Source: Firmicutes bacterium CAG:460 (GTDB taxonomy: Bacteria > Bacillota_I > Bacilli_A > RF39 > UBA660). Taken from it: 64,000 bases of DNA. The notes under the pieces are model-generated. The model saw only the letters and a program-made list of their open reading frames with translations. It was not told where the DNA came from and ran no database searches. This document shows positions 45,316-53,438 of the stretch, piece by piece. The number at the start of each line of letters is the position of its first letter. Within the stretch, counting starts at the first letter, position 1. A program made the translations under genes and the position numbers. The DNA lies in assembly GCA_000437355.1 (NCBI GenBank), contig FR899775.1:32523-96522 (forward strand), written 5' to 3'.

Positions 45316-45539
45316 TCTTTAGTTGTTCTATATCCTCGAAACTTTACTTCTTTTAATTTTGGTAATGTTATTACTCTTTTATTAAAATCTACTCTGATAG
45401 TTTCATACTTTTTATTTTTATAAGTACTTCTTTAGTTGTTCTATATCCACGAAACTTTACTTCTTTTAATTTTGGTAATGTTATTATTCTTTTATTAAAA
45501 TCTACTCTGATAGTTTCATACTTTTTATTTTTATAAGTA
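45316..45539. repeat. Tandem duplication, 2 x about 112 bp, inside tnpB
   Basis: 45316-45426 and 45429-45539 align (TTCTTTAGTTGTTCTATATCC(T/A)CGAAAC...TTTTTATAAGTA). Confidence 0.85.
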
Positions 45540-45886
45540 TTCAGTGTATTATTAGTTCTAAAACTATCATGTACACCTTTTGCCCTAAATTTTGGATAAC
45601 CATTTCCTCTAAAAAACTTTTGAAATGCATCATCTAAATTATATACACACGCTTGCAAAGCACATGAATCTATTTCTCTTAACCATTCTTTTTCTCTTTT
45701 TAAATCTGTTAGCTCTTTTAATTGTTCATAAACATGCACTTTTGTTTTACTTTCTTCATATTTATTTTTTCTTTCTGCTAGAAAATTATTATAAATATAT
45801 CTAGTACATCCAAAAGTTTTTTCAATTAATTCTCTTTGTGAATCAGTAGGATAAATTCTTAATTTATATGCCTTATAAGTATTCAT
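45389..45886 (-). pseudogene. tnpB: tnpB fragment (N-terminal part, copy 2)
   Basis: MNTYKAYKLRIYPTDSQRELIEKTFGCTRYIYNNFL...KLKEVKFRGYRTTKE, then truncated at a duplication junction. Confidence 0.75.
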
Positions 45887-46377
45887 TAAACCATCCCCCT
45901 CGGATGATTAAATTATATCATATGTTCGGCCATATATCAAGATTTATTTTTGCAAAATTTGGATGACTTTCTTCATGTACACCTTTTGCCCTAAATTTTG
46001 GATAACCTTTACCATGAAAAAATCCTTGAAATGCATCATCCAAATTATATACACATGCTTGTAAGACACATGAATCTATTTCTCTTAACCATTCTTTTTC
46101 TCTTTTTAAATCTGTTAGCTCTTTTAATTGTTCATAAACATGCACTTTTGTTTTACTTTCTTCATATTTATTTTTTCTTTCTGCTAGAAAATTATTATAA
46201 ATATATCTAGTACATCCAAAAGTTTTTTCAATTAATTCTCTTTGTGAATCAGTAGGATAAATTCTTAATTTATATGCTTTATAAGTGTTCATTAAACCAT
46301 CCCCCTTGGATGATTAAATTATATCATATGTTCGGCCATATATCAAGGTTTTATTTTGCAAATTTTGGATGACTTTC
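45567..46377. repeat. Tandem duplication, 2 x about 405 bp (tnpB codons 1 to about 105 plus the left end)
   Basis: 45567-45971 and 45973-46377 align. Both copies contain the left-end sequence TTAAACCATCCCCCT(C/T)GGATGATTAAATTATATCATATGTTCGGCCATATATCAAG. Confidence 0.85.
45918..46292 (-). pseudogene. tnpB: tnpB fragment (N-terminal part, copy 1, reads into a second left-end copy)
   Basis: The N-terminus is the same as copy 2 up to RAKGVH. The ORF then continues into the duplicated left-end sequence. Confidence 0.75.
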
Positions 46378-46493: not shown

Positions 46494-47906
46494 TTAATAT
46501 TGTCTTCCAATATATAATCTAGTTGTTGCCTTTTCACCACATACAGTACATGGTCCAGTTACTTCTTCATCATCAATTAAACATCTAGATTTAATGCCAA
46601 AATCATCTTTAATTTTATTTTCACAAGATTCATTACCACACCAATTGATTTTAATAAATCCTCCATCTTTTGTTGTAGCTATTTCTCTTAACTCATCATA
46701 AGTTTTAGCATCATAAATCATGCTATCTCTTCTTGCTTTAGCACGTTTGAACATATCACTTTGAATTGTTACAAGTAATTCCTCAACTTTAGGTAAAATT
46801 TCTTCAAAAGGAACAACTATTTTTTCTAAAGTATCTCTTCTAACTAAAGTAACATGATTATTTTCTAAATCTCTTTTACCAAGTTCAATTCTAATTGGAT
46901 ATCCTTTTACTTCAGCTTCAGCAAATTTAAATCCTGGAGTTTTATTGGTTTCATCAACTTTAAATGTAATATTATTTTCTTTTAAAGCATTTTTTAATTC
47001 ATCAAGTTTTTCTGAAACTTCCCCGATAGGTATTATTATAACTTTAAAAGGTGCAATCATCGGAGGTAAAACTAATCCATGGTCATCTCCGTGAGTCATA
47101 ATTATAGCTCCAATCATTCTAGTTGAAACTCCCCAACTAGTTTGATATGGAGTTTTTAAAGTATTATCACTATCAGTAAATTTAATACCAAAAGCTTTAG
47201 CAAAATGATTACCAAAATAATGACTTGTCCCATTTTGAAGAGCGTAACCATTATACATCATAGCTTCCAAAGTATAAGTTTCTTCAGCTCCAGCAAACTT
47301 TTCTTTTTCGGTTTTCTTTCCAGTAATAACAGGTAGTGCTAGATAATCTTCTTGAAAAGTTTTATAAACATTAAACATTCTTAAAGTTTCTTCTCTTGCT
47401 TCTTCGGCAGTTCTATGCATTGTATGACCTTCTTGCCATAATATCTCACGACTTCTAAGAAAAGGTCTTGTTGTTTTTTCCCATCTTACTATTGTACACC
47501 ATTGATTATAAAGAATAGGTAAATCTCTATAAGTATTTATTATTTTTTTATAATGGTCACAGAATAATACTTCACTTGTTGGTCTAACACACATTCTTTC
47601 TTCAAGCTTTTCTTGTCCCCCATATGTAACCCAAGCAACTTCGGGAGCAAATCCTTTAACATGTTCTTTTTCAACATTTAACAAGGATTCTGGAATAAAC
47701 ATTGGCATTTGCACATTTTCATGTCCAGTTTCTTTAAACATTCTATCCATATTCTTTTGTATTTCTTCCCAGATTGCATATCCAAGTGGTCTTATTATCA
47801 TACTTCCTTTTACACTTGAATAATCTACTAAATCAGCTTTTTTACATACATCAGTATACCATTTAGCAAAATCCACATCTCTATTTGTTATATCTTTTAC
47901 TTCCAT
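46494..47906 (-). CDS. proS: Proline--tRNA ligase (archaeal/eukaryote-like type lacking the bacterial insertion domain)
   Basis: 470 aa with N-terminus FAKWYTDVCKKADLVDYSSVKGSMIIRPLGYAIWE, C-terminal cysteines (CGNESC...CTVCG) and a terminal Tyr (YIGRQY). Confidence 0.9.
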   Translation of the reverse strand: MEVKDITNRDVDFAKWYTDVCKKADLVDYSSVKGSMIIRPLGYAIWEEIQKNMDRMFKETGHENVQMPMFIPESLLNVEKEHVKGFAPEVAWVTYGGQEKLEERMCVRPTSEVLFCDHYKKIINTYRDLPILYNQWCTIVRWEKTTRPFLRSREILWQEGHTMHRTAEEAREETLRMFNVYKTFQEDYLALPVITGKKTEKEKFAGAEETYTLEAMMYNGYALQNGTSHYFGNHFAKAFGIKFTDSDNTLKTPYQTSWGVSTRMIGAIIMTHGDDHGLVLPPMIAPFKVIIIPIGEVSEKLDELKNALKENNITFKVDETNKTPGFKFAEAEVKGYPIRIELGKRDLENNHVTLVRRDTLEKIVVPFEEILPKVEELLVTIQSDMFKRAKARRDSMIYDAKTYDELREIATTKDGGFIKINWCGNESCENKIKDDFGIKSRCLIDDEEVTGPCTVCGEKATTRLYIGRQY

Positions 47907-47915
47907 ATTCTCACC

Positions 47916-48134
47916 TTATTCTGCATTAAATTCTTTTAATTCATTATCTTCAGTTAATATTTTATTAACTTTTTTAGTAGCATCATTTAATTTTTCGCCA
48001 CAATATTTAGCTAATTTCATAGCTTCTGTATATTTATTAATTGCATCATCTAAATTAACATTACCACTTTCTAATTCTTTTACAATTGTTTCTAATTCTT
48101 GTAAAGATTCTTCAAAATTTTTATTTTCTTCCAT
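47916..48134 (-). CDS. xseB: Exodeoxyribonuclease VII small subunit
   Basis: 72 aa; FEESLQELETIVKELESGNVNLDDAINKYTEAMKL is the XseB signature. Confidence 0.85.
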   Translation of the reverse strand: MEENKNFEESLQELETIVKELESGNVNLDDAINKYTEAMKLAKYCGEKLNDATKKVNKILTEDNELKEFNAE

Positions 48135-48166
48135 AATTTATTTCCTTTCTTTATTTATTATACCAA

Positions 48167-48703
48167 TTATTTTAAATTAATCCAATACCTATTTAATGGT
48201 TCATTATTCCACATAACAGTATTTTCTAATACTCCACCTTCTGAAATAATTGTTTTATTACTTAAAGTATTTGTTTTATCTGCAGTTATTAAATACTTTT
48301 CTATTCCTAAATCTTTAGCAATTTCTAAAGCCATCTTAAGTTGTAGCTTTCCATAACCTTTACCACGTTCACTCGGAGTAACTGAATAACCGATATGACC
48401 TCCAAAATTAAATAAAAATTCATTTAATTCATGTCTAATACTTATAGAACCACATACTTTATTATCACTCATTCTTTTTAAAAATAATGTTGTGCACGGA
48501 ACATAACCATCTCTTAAATCTATACCATTTTTTTCATTTGCTTTTTCTTTAACCCAATCTTCATAAGATGTTGCCTCTTCCAAATTAGCAAGGCCTGAAT
48601 ATTGCCATGGAAGCCCAGCATCAACAGCTTTAATTTCATCAAGCATTAAAAGAGCACTTTTTTTATCATTATTATCTGGTATAACTAACTTTAAATCATT
48701 CAT
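48167..48703 (-). CDS. GNAT-family N-acetyltransferase
   Basis: 178 aa. The acetyl-CoA-binding motif RGKGYGKLQLKMALEIAK and overall layout resemble the COG3981-type predicted acetyltransferases. Confidence 0.75.
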   Translation of the reverse strand: MNDLKLVIPDNNDKKSALLMLDEIKAVDAGLPWQYSGLANLEEATSYEDWVKEKANEKNGIDLRDGYVPCTTLFLKRMSDNKVCGSISIRHELNEFLFNFGGHIGYSVTPSERGKGYGKLQLKMALEIAKDLGIEKYLITADKTNTLSNKTIISEGGVLENTVMWNNEPLNRYWINLK

Positions 48704-48705
48704 TT

Positions 48706-49515
48706 TTATCTTCCTTCCTTTTTTATGAGACCTTTATCTTTTAATAAATCTCCAATTAATTCATAGTTTCTTCTAAAAAGTTCCATATTATAATCTTTAT
48801 CATGATTAATAATCCCCGTAGATTTTTCTTTTTCTAAAATATTAGAATATACAACCTCTGGAGCAAGTTTATTATAAAAATCAACTACTAATTTGCAAAA
48901 ATAATTTGATGATGTTGTTAAAAAATATTCTAATAGTTCCATGTTTTGTTTCATTCCAATTGTTGCTTTTGGATTTCTTATTATCCTTGTACCATTTCTT
49001 AAAAAGTCTCTTTTATCATACTTAGGACTTAATTCAACTCTAAAAACAGATTCAAATATAGATTCATTATCAAATATATAAATTTTAGGTTTCCCATTTT
49101 CTTCTACAATTGCATAATTACCAGCATGTCTATCTCCATTAAGCATAAATATATCAAAAATAAATACTTTTACTAAATCAAATATTAAATCTTTACATTC
49201 TTTGGGATATTCTTTTTCTACTACATACCACAAATTATATATAGTATTAGAAAAGTAATCTATTCCAATTAAATCTTTTCCACTTTTAAAACTTCCTAAA
49301 TTATTAAAACTATAACTTAAATAATATAAGTCTTTATTTACTCTAACAATGTGATAAAGGGGACAATTAATACCTACAATATTTGCTAATCTATATGCTA
49401 ATATTTCATTACAATCATTTTTAGCAATTTTACAGAAATATTCAATACCATCTAAATTAACATAATCATGTTCTTTAGATACTATCTCTTCTTTCTGTTT
49501 TTCAGTTAGTTTCAT
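48706..49515 (-). CDS. HipA / PI3-PI4-kinase-like catalytic-loop protein (paralog 2)
   Basis: FDIFMLNGDRHAGNYAI is a D-x-H-x-x-N catalytic loop, followed by IYIFDNE, a metal-binding Asp candidate. At 269 aa it has no HipA N-domain. It is paralogous to 51416..52228. Confidence 0.55.
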   Translation of the reverse strand: MKLTEKQKEEIVSKEHDYVNLDGIEYFCKIAKNDCNEILAYRLANIVGINCPLYHIVRVNKDLYYLSYSFNNLGSFKSGKDLIGIDYFSNTIYNLWYVVEKEYPKECKDLIFDLVKVFIFDIFMLNGDRHAGNYAIVEENGKPKIYIFDNESIFESVFRVELSPKYDKRDFLRNGTRIIRNPKATIGMKQNMELLEYFLTTSSNYFCKLVVDFYNKLAPEVVYSNILEKEKSTGIINHDKDYNMELFRRNYELIGDLLKDKGLIKKEGR

Positions 49516-49528
49516 ATTTATCCCTTCT

Positions 49529-50179
49529 TTATTTATTACTAATTAATTTATTCTTACTTTCTTTTTCTAACGTTTTTAAACTTTTTTCTGGTGTTGGAAA
49601 CTCTTCAGGCATCGTACCACCGATATCAGAAATAGCTTTTCTTACTTTTTTACCGACTTCATAATGAACATCATTTGCTTTAGTTTCACCTTTTACATTA
49701 TCCCTTTTTAGTTTTTGTTCTGTTTGAGATATTCTAAACAAATTAGCTATAAGTTCATCACTACCCATGTTATCTAAGATATCTTCTCTATATCTTAAAC
49801 CTTTTCTCTTTGCTATATCATTAGCAGTTTCACCATTATATAATCCCTTATAACCAGAATTATGAAATCTATCAAAGTTTTTAACTCCAGCATCTTTTGC
49901 AGCTTGATTTAAAGAATAGTTTCCTTTTTTAGTTAAATTTCTTTGATAAAACCTTTTCTCGTCTTCTGTTAAACTAGAATATTCTCTTTCAGTAATTTCC
50001 ATTTTTCTAGTTTGAAACGCAAAGTATGTTTGAGCAAGAGCTATCGTTTTCTTTCTACTATCACCATTCTGAGCAATTAAGTAACATGCATAACGGGATA
50101 ATTTATAATCAGAAATATTTCTGGAAGTTTTTGATCCTATGTTGACCATTTTCCCCACTTGGGGAAAATGGTCTAACAA
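49529..50179 (-). pseudogene. dinD: DinD-like (DNA-damage-inducible protein D family) gene, apparently 5'-truncated
   Basis: LSRYACYLIAQNGDSRKKTIALAQTYFAFQTRKME...LIANLFRISQTEQKLKRD...GGTMPEEFPTP matches the DinD family as I remember it. The N-terminal roughly 60 residues of that family are missing. The frame begins at a TTG 2 nt after the xseA stop with no RBS. Confidence 0.55.
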
Positions 50180-50181
50180 AC

Positions 50182-51444
50182 TTATTTTTCTACAACTTTA
50201 GCTTTAATATTACCTTCATGTAATTTAACATTAATAATATCATCGATATTAACATCAGTACTTGATTTTATAACTTTATCATTAATTGTTGCCAACGAAT
50301 ATCCTTTTTCTAAAATACCCAACGGATTAACAAGTTTTAATGTATTAATTAAAAGATTATATTCATTTTTCTTCTTATCAATTAAACTCATTGGATTTTG
50401 CATAACGTAAGACATCTTTATTTTATTTAATTTAATCTCATTATTTTGTAATATAACTTTTATATCTTTATTTAAATTATCCAGTAAAACATCTAATTTT
50501 TGTTCTTTTATTTCATACATACTCATTGGATTTTTTAAAACAAAACTATTTTTTAAACTTCTCCATTTAATGAATTTAGTATTAACCATATTTTTAATAT
50601 TTTTATTAAGACGAATTTTGTAATTATTTAAAAGGGTATTAATATCAATAACAGTTGGAACAGCCATTTCTGCAGCTCCAGTTGGAGTGGGGGCTCTTAA
50701 ATCTGCCACGAAATCAGCAATTGTCCAGTCAATTTCATGACCAACAGCACTTATAATCGGTGTTCCACATTCATATATTGCATGAGCAACAATTTCTTCA
50801 TTAAAAGCCCATAAATCTTCAATAGAACCACCACCACGGCCCACAATAATTGTATCAACTCCATAAGCATCAGCTCTTTTTATTTGTCTTACAATATCTG
50901 GAGCAGCATCTCTTCCTTGCACTAAACATGGAAACAAAATAGCTTCACAAATTGGATATCTTCTTCTAATAGTACTCATAATATCTCTAACGGCAGCTCC
51001 AGTTGATGCTGTTATAACTCCAATTTTCTCAGGAAATCTAGGAATAGCTTTTTTATGGGTTTCATCAAATAAACCAACGCTTGCAAGTTTCTTTTTTAAT
51101 TTTTCATATTCAATATATAAAGCCCCTAAACCATCTGGTTCCATTTTTTCAATATAAATTTGATATGACCCTTGAGAAGGATAAGCGCTAATTCTTCCCT
51201 CTACTAAAACATTCATTCCATCCTCAGGAACAAAAGATAATTTTATTGCACTACTTTGAAACATTACTGCACTTATTCTAGAAGTATCATCTTTTAAAGT
51301 GAAATATAAATGCCCTCTAGTATGATTTTTAAAATTACTTATTTCTCCTTTTAAATATACTTTATTTAAAAATATATCATCATCTAATTTTCTTTTAATA
51401 TAATTATTTAAATCGCTAATTTTTAGATATTCTTTGTCCATCAA
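50182..51444 (-). CDS. xseA: Exodeoxyribonuclease VII large subunit
   Basis: N-terminal OB fold (VYLKGEISNFKNHTRGHLYFTLKD), the catalytic core GVITASTGAAVRD...IVGRGGGSIEDLWAFNEE, and a C-terminal coiled coil. Confidence 0.9.
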   Translation of the reverse strand: MMDKEYLKISDLNNYIKRKLDDDIFLNKVYLKGEISNFKNHTRGHLYFTLKDDTSRISAVMFQSSAIKLSFVPEDGMNVLVEGRISAYPSQGSYQIYIEKMEPDGLGALYIEYEKLKKKLASVGLFDETHKKAIPRFPEKIGVITASTGAAVRDIMSTIRRRYPICEAILFPCLVQGRDAAPDIVRQIKRADAYGVDTIIVGRGGGSIEDLWAFNEEIVAHAIYECGTPIISAVGHEIDWTIADFVADLRAPTPTGAAEMAVPTVIDINTLLNNYKIRLNKNIKNMVNTKFIKWRSLKNSFVLKNPMSMYEIKEQKLDVLLDNLNKDIKVILQNNEIKLNKIKMSYVMQNPMSLIDKKKNEYNLLINTLKLVNPLGILEKGYSLATINDKVIKSSTDVNIDDIINVKLHEGNIKAKVVEK

Positions 51445-52228
51445 TAAGTCCCCTTTCTACTAATAATTTTCCAATTAAATTATAATTCATTTTATATAAA
51501 ACAAGATAATAATCTCTTTCAACTTTATCTAAAACTATACCATCTTGTTCATATTTACTAAACACTGACAAGACATATTCAGGTGTTAATTTTTGATAAA
51601 AATCCACCACTAAATCACTATATTCACTAGAAGATGTCCCCATAAAATATTCTAAGCCTTCTAAGTTTCTTTCTACATTAAGAGGTGTATGATTATTTAA
51701 TATATCTTTATAATAAGACTTTTTCAAACGTTCTTCATACCCAATTTTGGCTCTTAAATCTGCTTCATAAGTACTAAAAACAAATTCATTATCTAAAATA
51801 TAAAGATAAGCTTTTCCATCACTTTCTAAAATACCAATATTACCTAAGTTTCTATCTCCATTTAATAAAAATATATCATATAAAAACACTTTTACTAAAT
51901 CATTTACTAAATGTCTACTAAATTTTGGATACTTTTTCTCAAGAAAAACCCAAATATCATACAAACTATTTGAATTAAAGCCAAGTTCTTGACCATTTTT
52001 AAAAGTTCCAAAATTATTTAAACTTAAACTTAAATAATATGCATCATCACTAGTTTTTATAAAATAATCTTTAACACAATTAATATTTAAATATGAAGCA
52101 ATTTCATTAGCAACTAACTGAAGTCCTTCGTCTACAGAACTTTTTACATAATATTCAGTACCATTAATAGTAACAAAACCATCTACATATCTAGTAATTT
52201 TTTCAATATCTTCTAAAGTTAAGTTCAT
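51416..52228 (-). CDS. HipA / PI3-PI4-kinase-like catalytic-loop protein (paralog 1)
   Basis: YDIFLLNGDRNLGNIGI and LYILDNE. It shares DLVKVF-DIF-LNGDR, LEYF--TSS, LVVDFY-KL-PE and NY-LIG-LL with paralog 2. It starts 2 nt after the nusB stop and overlaps xseA by 29 nt. Confidence 0.55.
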   Translation of the reverse strand: MNLTLEDIEKITRYVDGFVTINGTEYYVKSSVDEGLQLVANEIASYLNINCVKDYFIKTSDDAYYLSLSLNNFGTFKNGQELGFNSNSLYDIWVFLEKKYPKFSRHLVNDLVKVFLYDIFLLNGDRNLGNIGILESDGKAYLYILDNEFVFSTYEADLRAKIGYEERLKKSYYKDILNNHTPLNVERNLEGLEYFMGTSSSEYSDLVVDFYQKLTPEYVLSVFSKYEQDGIVLDKVERDYYLVLYKMNYNLIGKLLVERGLIDGQRISKN

Positions 52229-52230
52229 AA

Positions 52231-52626
52231 TTACTCTTTAATATATTTATCTAAGACAGCATTAATAATTTTTCTAACAGCTTCATCACAATACTTCTTA
52301 GCAAGTTCAACAGCTTCATTAATTACAACAATTTCTGGTGTATCAGTAAACTTAAGTTCATATAATCCCATTCTAAGAATAGCAGCTCCAGTTTTATCAA
52401 TTCTATCAATTGTCCATCCATCAATATATTTATTAGCAATTCTATCTAATTCATCTTTATATGTAGTAACACCATAAACAATACTTTTAACAAAGTCATT
52501 ATCAACATTTAAATTTTCTTTAATAACATCATCAAGATTAAACGGGACACATCTACTCTCATAAATATCAATTTGATATAAAATAACCATAATTACATTT
52601 CTTAATTCACTTCTAGATTTTGCCAT
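52231..52626 (-). CDS. nusB: Transcription antitermination factor NusB
   Basis: 131 aa with RSELRNVIMVILYQ... and AILRMGLYEL... motifs. Confidence 0.85.
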   Translation of the reverse strand: MAKSRSELRNVIMVILYQIDIYESRCVPFNLDDVIKENLNVDNDFVKSIVYGVTTYKDELDRIANKYIDGWTIDRIDKTGAAILRMGLYELKFTDTPEIVVINEAVELAKKYCDEAVRKIINAVLDKYIKE

Positions 52627-52677
52627 AATTCTTCTCCTCGTTAAATAATTATATCAAATTTTTAACTAAATGCCTAG

Positions 52678-53178
52678 CTATTTTATTAAACTTCCTTCAA
52701 TAATTAATTGATATCCTTTCTTTACTTGATTACAAGTTGTAAGTATCACTTGATTTTTTTCATTTTTTATATTTATTTTGCCATTTTTGATTTCATTTCT
52801 AATATTTACAACTTCATAATTCATTATATTACCATCAATAATTAAAGTAATTTTATCACCCACAGATAGATACCTCAAATCATTAAAGTATGCAAGAGGT
52901 CCACTACCAGAATGAGCAGCTAAAAGATAAGTATTATTAATGCCAGTATCTATTAAAGTTACATTTTCTCCTACATTATTTTTTTCATTATCAACATTGT
53001 AAAAACCCAATTTCATATTAACTTTAGGTATAACTAAATAACCATAATACTCCAAATTATTTACATCAATAAACTCACTTTCAACTACATCACTATTACA
53101 TCCACAAAGACACATTAATAACAATATTATAATTATATTTTTCACCAGTTTTATAAGAATAACTTCTAATATCATCAT
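52678..53178 (-). CDS. Sortase-like transpeptidase
   Basis: LLAAHSG (catalytic His), VGDKITL and VILTTCN (catalytic Cys). The position where the catalytic Arg is expected after TxTC reads YQLII. The N-terminus has a lipobox-like LCGC. Confidence 0.65.
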   Translation of the reverse strand: MMILEVILIKLVKNIIIILLLMCLCGCNSDVVESEFIDVNNLEYYGYLVIPKVNMKLGFYNVDNEKNNVGENVTLIDTGINNTYLLAAHSGSGPLAYFNDLRYLSVGDKITLIIDGNIMNYEVVNIRNEIKNGKINIKNEKNQVILTTCNQVKKGYQLIIEGSLIK

Positions 53179-53438
53179 TCAAGTACAAATACCCCCTTAC
53201 TTGTATCAACTTCTACATTATTATTAAATAATCTTACTTCATAATTTGGATTTACATATTCTAAAATCATTTTTTGAATAACATTATTTTTCATCTCATC
53301 ATATGGATTTGCTAAATTTGCTATTAACCATTTATCAAACTCATCAACTTCATCCTCCTTTCTTACTTCTAATTTCATGGCATCAACACTTACTATGTTA
53401 GCGACAAATACTACTAAAACAACTACGATTTTTTTCAT
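53175..53438 (-). CDS. Small secreted hypothetical protein (87 aa)
   Basis: Signal peptide MKKIVVVLVVFVANIVSVDA. It overlaps the sortase-like gene by 4 nt. Confidence 0.5.
   Translation of the reverse strand: MKKIVVVLVVFVANIVSVDAMKLEVRKEDEVDEFDKWLIANLANPYDEMKNNVIQKMILEYVNPNYEVRLFNNNVEVDTSKGVFVLE

Follow-up and report, generated by a model that had tools for sequence, protein, structure and literature searches.

The stretch of DNA analysed here, hereafter the window, comprises 64,000 nucleotides of contig FR899775.1 (positions 32,523 to 96,522) from Firmicutes bacterium CAG:460, and carries two related genes, K1 and K2, within an operon that encodes the antitermination factor NusB and both subunits of exonuclease VII (ExoVII), XseA and XseB. 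On balance, our results favour the view that K1 and K2 encode active short Hip kinases that act without an antitoxin, reside in the operon and are dispensable, with K1 ancient in its slot between nusB and xseA and K2 forming part of a decaying cassette between xseA and xseB. This view is built on gene structure, fold, catalytic residues, phylogeny, purifying selection and the absence of partner genes. Kinases of the HipA family are understood almost wholly as toxins of persistence and phage defence, each held by its cognate antitoxin. The radiation of short Hip kinases described here appears to have shed every known antitoxin and to have been wired by overlapping reading frames into the housekeeping operons of genomes of ~1.1 Mb.

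The source is a metagenome-assembled genome (MAG) of uncultured gut Bacilli, ~1.1 Mb in size, ~25% GC and 94% complete (label G000), whose relatives include 'Clostridium sp. CAG:609', UMGS686 and Hadza gut MAGs. The open reading frame (ORF) list and the sequence together give the block order nusB, K1, xseA, truncated dinD, K2, GNAT, xseB and proS, with all genes on the minus strand (Table 1), and the order, the gaps and the 29-nt overlap of K1 with xseA described in an earlier sequence-only reading of the window were reproduced to the base. To that reading we add the rates of evolution, the origin of K2, the history of loss, the hipIN/HIRAN systems as the nearest partnered kin, the repair-operon contexts of related kinases and the putative palindrome-mediated deletion in dinD.

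Fold, catalytic residues and family of K1 and K2

Full-length alignment of K1 and K2 shows 40% identity (BLASTP E = 4e-63, far beyond chance), and the two have the motifs GDR(N/H)xGN and (L/F)DNE in common, which bears out their description as paralogues in the sequence-only reading. In Pfam searches, K2 scored just above the gathering cut-off of HipA_2 (PF20613; 27.9 bits, cut-off 27) and under that of HipA_C (26.4 bits, cut-off 30.5), and K1 remained under the cut-off of HipA_2 (17.9 bits). The proposed kinase identity was confirmed at the level of structure. AlphaFold (AF2) models, built from 14-sequence alignments, reached pLDDT 83.0 and pTM 0.84 for K1 and pLDDT 79.8 and pTM 0.80 for K2, and a Foldseek search of the PDB returned for both proteins, as top matches, HipT of Legionella pneumophila (HipT(Lp); 7vkb/8ezs), CtkA (3akj/3akk/3akl) and HipA (probability 1.0, TM 0.55-0.62). 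The best match of K1 was HipT(Lp) 8ezs_B (TM 0.62); PI3K, PI4K (including PI4K type II), CotH and Fam20 occupied lower ranks. Both proteins are predicted from these models to form a complete two-lobed ATP-binding kinase fold of the HipT/CtkA/HipA type, so the possibility that they lack any such fold, named in the sequence-only reading as fatal to its proposal, falls away. At the sequence level, the profile of the family also matched CtkA (E = 4.8e-5) and HipT(Lp) (E = 3e-4) among PDB entries, and the profile alignments are in register, pairing DRxxxN with FDRHNGN of CtkA, DN with the Mg-binding Asp, and YYvK/nE with the Lys and Glu of HipT.

Conservation was counted in 59 diverse members of the family, using K2 numbering. 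K29, D121, D128, R129, N133, D149 and N150 are at least 97% conserved and all of them are present in K1 and in K2; Y26 and S67 are also among the positions that are at least 90% conserved. The D-R-(H/N)-x-G-N loop to which the sequence-only reading drew attention is indeed common to both proteins, and its H/N difference is ordinary family variation, since position 130 (H in K2, N in K1) is N in 23 of the 59 members, H in 20 and another residue in 16; the difference is therefore uninformative on activity. The suggestion that K1 is a pseudokinase because it reads DRN instead of DRH was rejected on the same counts and on the retention of D128, R129 and N133. The helix-C Glu is found in 52 of the 59 members, and K1 has Q (Q37) at this position. 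We also observed that a 54-nt stretch encoding the YYLSxSxNNxGxFK region (49274-49327 in K2, 51987-52040 in K1) is 85% identical between the two genes, well above the gene-wide level; either strong constraint or gene conversion accounts for this patch.

An exhaustive HMMER search recovered 562 clusters of the family (clustering at 50% identity) at E <= 1e-3, 233 of which reach E <= 1e-10. The members are mostly 250-290 aa in length, with a few fused proteins of 520-560 aa. None of the 562 clusters carried a source name, and a profile search of a word-indexed protein database yielded four distant extra proteins, also without names; the family is uncharacterised, in keeping with the sequence-only reading. 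Among 300 sampled genomes of the class, matches outside this bacterial family were weak throughout (E >= 2e-14). On these comparisons K1 and K2 appear to belong to an unnamed clade of ~270-aa 'short Hip' kinases found in one family of small-genome gut Bacilli. Their nearest kin are HipT and CtkA in structure, and HipI/PDC-M03A by profile.

Nothing speaks for a phage origin of the K genes: with K2 as the query, tblastn found no homologue in 50,697 phage records, Foldseek against the BFVD viral structures gave only distant PI3K-like domains, and the sole phage link was a match to phrog_3162 (E = 5e-13; for K1, E = 2e-10). The genome holds one other Hip-like gene, its third and last, which encodes a 418-aa protein on a separate contig (G000:C23:19681-22908, L003), reads GDRHADN and then YDNS, and scores under the cut-off of HipA_C. 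It is followed, with a 4-nt overlap, by a 201-aa ORF which may be its partner.

History of the nusB/xseA and xseA/xseB slots

Relatives outside the lineage, in other families of the class and in a second family of the order, retain the ancestral, uninterrupted arrangement nusB-xseA-xseB (G025, G029, G030, G032, G036, G038, G039). In the window, nusB and xseA are split by one gene, and xseA and xseB by three. Because relatives in other families keep the three genes adjacent, the operon is truly interrupted with respect to the ancestral order, as the sequence-only reading had stated; however, K1 is not a recent interruption, its position being ancestral over several genera, and only the insert between xseA and xseB has the character of an acquired cassette.

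Among 24 sampled genomes of the genus, the nusB/xseA slot (slot 1) holds an intact K gene in 13, one of which is a K-K fusion, and a pseudogene in one; it is empty in eight and coincides with a contig end in two. In a 200-genome sample of the order, a K-family gene adjoins xseA in six genera (g1, g52, g19, g108, g80 and g112), whose xseA is 56-71% identical to that of the window and several of which carry tandem K pairs or fusions. The tree of xseA and nusB places the slot-1 K gene as ancestral to a multi-genus clade, with one gain and, within the genus, at least five losses. The slot of K1 therefore appears from these trees to be old and vertically inherited in at least six genera. A recent horizontal insertion of K1 was considered and rejected, given vertical inheritance on the species tree and the lack of a GC anomaly or of transposon-type repeats: GC is uniform across the block (~25%) with no composition anomaly, and no repeats of mobile-element or transposon type were found flanking the inserts. 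The sequence-only reading had allowed that the kinases might belong to a known housekeeping family routinely linked to nusB/xseA. The link is indeed routine in this lineage; the family, however, is not a known one, nor is it housekeeping, because it was lost at least five times in the genus.

The ratio of non-synonymous to synonymous substitution rates (dN/dS) is 0.12-0.56 for K1 and 0.2-0.47 for K2, compared with 0.01-0.14 for xseA, nusB, xseB and proS. The nusB/xseA slot evolves 5-10 times faster than its neighbours, and both K genes are under purifying selection. Compared with close relatives, G000 has a K1 of 45-49% identity and an xseA of 93-94%, at similar dS. A crude region-wise test on eight close pairs found no region with dN/dS consistently above 1 and hence no positive selection. 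These rates and the pattern of loss suggest that the K genes have a function, evolve fast and can be dispensed with. In other genera, the nusB/xseA slot is filled by K genes in tandem pairs or K-K fusions, as in five loci, L053 (G148), L054 (G158), L055 (G084), L059 (G175) and L034 (G017). One copy is often degenerate: the 's1a' copies of G148 and G158 have DF..N/Q, and no motif survives in the C-terminal half of the fusion in G175. The degenerate copies remain under purifying selection, and the arrangement looks like a recurring combination of a kinase with a pseudokinase.

The xseA/xseB slot (slot 2) is found empty, with a full-length Bro-N/DinD-like gene alone, or with a dinD fragment and GNAT. 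The complete series dinD-K2-GNAT is present in G018 and, with dinD truncated, in the window; one Hadza MAG has K2-GNAT without dinD; G011, which matches G018 at 99.5% identity in xseA, has GNAT alone; and G015 has GNAT together with a C-terminal remnant of K2. The slot-2 K genes group together (98% support), with the slot-1 K genes of G009 and HadzaB as their sister (99% support), and K2 would therefore descend from a slot-1 allele by duplication or transfer within the genus. Between G000 and G018, dS is 0.25-0.37 for dinD, K2 and GNAT, and 0.82 for xseA, 0.59 for nusB and 0.52 for proS; the lower values of the cassette hint, weakly because the genes are short, at a more recent exchange of the cassette than of its flanks. 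Taken by its gene content and divergence, dinD-K2-GNAT behaves as an acquired cassette in decay, and the xseA/xseB and xseB/proS junctions appear to be general landing sites for accessory genes.

The sequence-only reading had counted the GNAT gene, with the kinases, as part of an add-on to the repair operon. The gene is present as described, but it belongs to a family that is widespread in Bacilli, with a paralogue elsewhere in the window genome, and it persists without K2, being retained in slot 2 under purifying selection in G004, G005, G011 and G015. PADLOC gave no match for it. An obligate or toxin-antitoxin pairing of K2 with GNAT is not supported, as GNAT persists without K2 and slot-1 K genes occur without GNAT; nor does the block contain a small RHH/DUF1778 antitoxin ORF or domain of the kind that accompanies GNAT toxins of the TacAT/AtaRT type.

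The truncation of the dinD-like gene was seen correctly in the sequence-only reading: the ORF covers only positions 64-276 of the 288 of NF008573, and further matches PADLOC PDC-S13 (E = 2e-80) and phrog_8036. Its full-length orthologues are 275-279 aa in length with Bro-N at residues 13-108, and alignment with them reveals that the promoter, the ribosome-binding site, ~60 codons and half of Bro-N have been deleted. The gene thus falls short of a full-length DinD/Bro-N protein (~275-290 aa with N-terminal Bro-N), and is probably a decaying remnant. A perfect palindrome marks the deletion junction (Table 1); this is its sole copy in the genome, and the chance expectation in the window is 0. Full-length dinD loci hold two ~30-bp palindromes of the form ACCATTTT-N12-14-AAAATGGT, the first just past the stop codon of xseA and the second within dinD at codons ~55-65; their folding energies range from -16 to -23 kcal/mol (junctions L015, L016, L018, L020, L026, L067). 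In G000, and as a separate event in HadzaB, precisely what lies between the two copies is missing, which points to removal of the dinD 5' end by recombination between two copies of the 30-bp palindrome. The inner stem differs among species and stays self-complementary, with SQVG, PEFR, ADVG and VGAD as the encoded residues; compensatory change that alters the residues argues for selection on nucleic-acid structure inside the coding region. Elsewhere, unrelated coiled-coil/transmembrane proteins of 215-258 aa are encoded at xseA/xseB or xseB/proS (L030, L031, L034, L035, L033, L026), and G003 has three paralogous membrane proteins at such a junction.

Partner genes, relatives and rival explanations

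The Hip kinases described so far are partnered by HipB, HipS, HipN (HipS-like plus HIRAN) or other antitoxins, or carry an HTH domain in cis (PMC8262856). A Pfam scan of every gene of the block found no HTH/HipB, HipS, HipN/HIRAN or DUF3037 gene. Likewise, the whole 94%-complete genome gave no match to DUF3037, to Couple_hipA/HipS, to HIRAN or to the HipN protein of a congener, and a control genome for the DUF3037 search did give a match. The toxin-like add-on suggested by the sequence-only reading is therefore unsupported by gene content, there being no antitoxin-type partner in cis or in trans.

To place K1 and K2 among their relatives, we compared twenty further K-like loci of the same bacterial family; some of the neighbouring genes were checked with Pfam, and others (tex, galE, ybeY-era-recO) were recognised by eye from N-terminal sequences. 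Six loci (L081, L082, L085, L088, L089, L091) are true two-gene modules in which a kinase of 284-308 aa is followed by a ~225-aa partner with C-terminal HIRAN. Their scores against PADLOC PDC-M03A and PDC-M03B lie at 1e-54 to 1e-69, and their organisation is that of hipIN (PMC8262856); one of the modules occurs in the same genus as the window (G004), and another lies directly after dinB (G165). The remaining contexts are of solo kinases. The order pcrA-NTP transferase-K-ligA, with a K/ligA overlap of 4-11 nt, is found at L061 (G231), L062 (G147) and G179:C21:14583-17325, in two genera. Further solo kinases lie after ku-ligD (ku-ligD-K; L093, G172), one small ORF before tag (K-(74-aa ORF)-tag; L077, G008), within rpsF-ssb-rpsR-K-rplI-dnaB (L095, G132), in queA-K-tgt (L090, G127) and two genes after gltX (gltX-(297-aa ORF)-K; L080, G047), and the contexts whiA-K, K-tex, galE-K and K-ybeY-era-recO were also seen. 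GltX is the classical target of HipA. ProRS as a co-located target of the window kinases, by analogy with GltX/TrpS, is inconsistent with these data, proS being unlinked to K in genus g52 and in the ligA contexts.

A tree of 62 sequences separates the hipIN kinases as one clade (100% support) from the nusB/xseA-slot kinases as another (35 members, 99% support), and a neighbouring clade gathers the solo kinases associated with ligA, tag, tex and parB. The lineage as a whole therefore has the appearance, judged by tree and gene order, of a radiation of antitoxin-less short Hip kinases which ride on conserved operons, several of them, not all, of DNA repair or replication. Enrichment of DNA genes among the neighbours of solo kinases is marginal in a rough binomial estimate with two neighbours per gene. 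The sequence-only reading had seen a DNA-damage theme in xseA, xseB and dinD; the solo relatives beside ligA, ku-ligD, tag and ssb/dnaB, together with HIRAN in the hipIN kin, lend it some substance, and the link of solo kinases to DNA repair is a suggestive lead.

Several known systems resemble K1 and K2 in part. The best profile match is hipIN/PDC-M03 (PDC-M03A against K2, E = 3.5e-10; against solo relatives, down to 3.5e-18), and HipI, one of the short Hip kinases of clade XI with 279-321 aa (Gerdes et al. 2021, PMC8262856), is like K1 and K2 a short core kinase without the N-subdomain 1 of HipA. However, K1 and K2 are not followed by HipN, the next genes being xseA and GNAT; they form a separate clade, are shorter (269-270 aa) and lie in a housekeeping operon instead of a bicistronic module of their own, and their similarity is moderate and to component A only, whereas true modules match both A and B at the far stronger values given above. 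The top structural match is HipT of HipBST from E. coli O127 and L. pneumophila (Lpg2370; TM 0.57-0.62, full length), which has the same truncated architecture without N-subdomain 1. In contrast to HipT, which is neutralised by HipS and regulated by HipB, K1 and K2 have neither: nusB and the dinD remnant are the genes upstream of them, and the genome has no Couple_hipA. The K proteins also have ~22 residues before the Lys strand, so that a Gly-rich loop of the HipT type, with its autophosphorylated serines, would be missing.

CtkA of Helicobacter pylori (JHP0940) is a stand-alone, compact kinase of the HipA fold with no adjacent antitoxin. It is the best sequence-profile match in the PDB, and its loop DRHNGNWG resembles the family consensus DRnlgNwg; however, its identity to the K proteins is 12-16% and its length 325 aa. 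CtkA lies in a plasticity zone/integrative element of a proteobacterial pathogen and acts on host cells, whereas K1 and K2 are encoded in a chromosomal operon of a lineage of gut commensals. E. coli K-12 has in HipH/YjjJ likewise a monocistronic Hip kinase without a separate antitoxin (PMC8262856, PMC9948734), but it is 443 aa long with an N-terminal HTH which possibly acts in cis, and K1 and K2 have no extra domain. K1 and K2 differ from HipA of hipBA in size (HipA ~440 aa with N-subdomain 1) and in having no HTH gene in the block. Finally, PDC-M66, which consists of a HipA-like kinase and a DUF3037 protein (PMC12548924), is matched by K1 (PDC-M66A, E = 3e-6), and K2 just reaches the cut-off of the Pfam family HipA_2; a DUF3037 gene is absent from block and genome.

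We propose the following series of events for K1 and K2 as operon-resident kinases without an antitoxin. K1 would be transcribed with the operon and translationally coupled to xseA from an old, vertically inherited slot. K2, duplicated from a slot-1 allele, would have entered the xseA/xseB junction together with the Bro-N/DinD-like and GNAT genes as a cassette, which is now decaying and in which dinD would have lost its 5' end by recombination between palindromes. The kinases would be made at operon-set, probably low, levels and would use ATP to phosphorylate a cellular protein, and their physiological role would be that of domesticated, dispensable, fast-evolving growth or stress kinases instead of a self-contained toxin-antitoxin or defence module. 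Several observations weigh against this proposal. Repeated loss, copy-number change, pairs of a kinase with a degenerate kinase, and fusions would also fit a conflict system, as would the similarity to phage-defence candidates and the neighbouring PDC-S13-like gene. K1, with Q in place of the helix-C Glu and a score under the Pfam cut-off, is possibly a weak or inactive kinase. Moreover, the MAG is 94% complete, and a partner acting in trans may be encoded in the absent 6%.

The first set of these objections leads to an explanation that we judge rather unlikely, namely that K1 and K2 act in abortive infection or as toxins, in the manner of the kinases HipA, HipT and HipI. Something other than a cognate antitoxin would restrain them, such as autophosphorylation, pairing of the paralogues or low coupled expression, and upon release by phage infection or DNA damage they would halt growth through phosphorylation of a translation factor. 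The PADLOC matches of K2 (PDC-M03A), K1 (PDC-M66A) and the dinD-like gene (PDC-S13) are in keeping with such a role, as are the genuine PDC-M03 (hipIN) modules in the same family and even the same genus, the fast evolution of K1 (48% identity, compared with 93% for xseA, between G000 and a sister species), the repeated losses, duplications, fusions and kinase pairs of the relatives, and the accessory genes that differ between species at the xseA/xseB slot. The genome, however, has no B component, HipS, HipN, HipB or DUF3037; the genes are inherited vertically in a translationally coupled housekeeping operon, with neither a composition anomaly nor flanking mobile repeats; tblastn found no homologue in the phage records and no region has dN/dS consistently above 1; and the solo K clades stand apart from the hipIN kinases.

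The contexts of the solo relatives also bring to mind a kinase coupled to DNA repair, which would partner the enzyme encoded directly downstream, ExoVII in the operon of the window and LigA, LigD or Tag in that of relatives; it would phosphorylate that enzyme or signal damage at DNA ends, the genomic neighbour taking the place of the HIRAN sensor of hipIN/HipL. The direct position of a solo K before ligA with overlapping frames in three genomes of two genera, the solos after ku-ligD, near tag and in the ssb-dnaB operon, the linkage to xseA across at least six genera, and the use of a HIRAN antitoxin, which binds DNA ends, by the nearest partnered relatives, with one hipIN following dinB (PMC8262856), all speak for this explanation. 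We nevertheless consider it unlikely: other solos lie beside tgt/queA, whiA, tex, galE, gltX and ybeY, the enrichment of DNA genes is marginal, and xseA persists without K in at least eight members of the genus that lost it. Its more specific form, in which every solo short Hip kinase of this family would be devoted to a DNA-end-processing enzyme and coupled in translation to the repair gene it serves, we regard as quite improbable; if true, these kinases would do by operon wiring what the HIRAN sensor does in hipIN and HipL, and would be the first HipA-fold kinases to act as regulators of DNA repair instead of translation toxins.

Very improbable, in our estimation, is that K1, K2 or both are non-catalytic relics or scaffolds, or kinases of a small molecule. 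In K1, Q37 replaces the helix-C Glu and N stands at the position of the catalytic-loop His, relatives carry degenerate yet constrained copies (the 's1a' copies of G148 and G158, the C-terminal half of the G175 fusion), and the tail of the Foldseek list contains PI4K type II, CotH and Fam20. On the other hand, both proteins retain the catalytic Asp, the Asn, the Mg-binding Asp and the ATP-binding Lys, dN/dS stays under 1, position 130 is most often N in the family, and the nearest structures are all protein Ser/Thr kinases. If K1 and K2 are active, as we propose, what needs to be explained is how a toxin-type kinase is tolerated without its antidote, and which substrate it has. The answer could reveal a route of domestication from toxin to regulator, and a new layer of control on ExoVII or ligase in abundant uncultured bacteria of the human gut. 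The locus itself offers natural sets for comparison, in the form of species with and without K and of duplicated, fused and degenerate copies.

Operon signals, coordinates and neighbouring genes

The genes of the block are separated by gaps of 2 nt (nusB/K1), 2 nt (xseA/dinD), 13 nt (dinD/K2), 2 nt (K2/GNAT), 32 nt (GNAT/xseB) and 9 nt (xseB/proS). The overlap of K1 with xseA is 29 nt when counted from TTG (51444) and 26 nt when counted from ATG (51441), the latter being the likely start of xseA. Read from the sequence, the start codon and the Shine-Dalgarno element of xseA both fall inside the final codons of K1, and the ribosome-binding site of GNAT inside those of K2. The conserved ERG(L/I)xxG(Q/K)R(I/L) tail of slot-1 K proteins would be due to this dual coding with the xseA Shine-Dalgarno. 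No terminator-like site was found between a promoter-like site upstream of nusB and proS. The promoter-like site scores 10/12 matches with an extended -10, and such matches occur at chance frequency in this AT-rich region; it is compatible with an operon promoter, as a candidate short of proof. Owing to the overlaps and 2-nt gaps, the embedded Shine-Dalgarno and the lack of an internal terminator, the block is likely to be co-transcribed, and K1 to be translationally coupled to xseA, in agreement with the tight coupling that the sequence-only reading had remarked upon.

Table 1. Genes and sequence elements of the nusB-proS block, in window coordinates.
Feature	Position	Strand	Evidence or description
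Promoter-like site TAGGCA, 17-nt spacer, TG-TATAAT	52648..52676	-	22 nt upstream of nusB; candidate
nusB, transcription antitermination factor	52231..52626	-	PF01029 E = 4e-32; TIGR01951 113 bits, cut-off 88
K1, short Hip-type kinase, 270 aa, slot nusB/xseA	51416..52228	-	catalytic loop GDRNLGN, then ILDNE
xseA Shine-Dalgarno GAAAGGGGA	51449..51457	-	within K1 codons ...ERGLI...; 8 nt before ATG 51441
xseA, exonuclease VII large subunit	50182..51444	-	TIGR00237 474 bits; PF02601 E = 3e-91
Palindrome, perfect 14+14 nt, GACCATTTTCCCCA..TGGGGAAAATGGTC	50144..50173	.	inverted repeat at dinD deletion junction
dinD-like, 5'-truncated Bro-N/DinD gene, 216 aa	49529..50179	-	NF008573 273 bits
K2, short Hip-type kinase, 269 aa	48706..49515	-	catalytic loop GDRHAGN, then IFDNE
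GNAT N-acetyltransferase, 178 aa	48167..48703	-	PF00583 E = 5e-9
xseB, exonuclease VII small subunit	47916..48134	-	TIGR01280 78.5 bits
proS, prolyl-tRNA synthetase, final gene of the co-directional block	46494..47906	-	TIGR00408 557 bits

Beyond the block, a sortase-like gene (166 aa) and, preceding it, a gene for an 87-aa secreted protein lie directly upstream of nusB (window 52678-53438), an arrangement which is kept across the genus. Just downstream of proS (window 45389-46292) are two tandem, near-identical fragments resembling the N terminus of an IS605-type TnpB (MNTYKAYKLRIYPTDSQ...).

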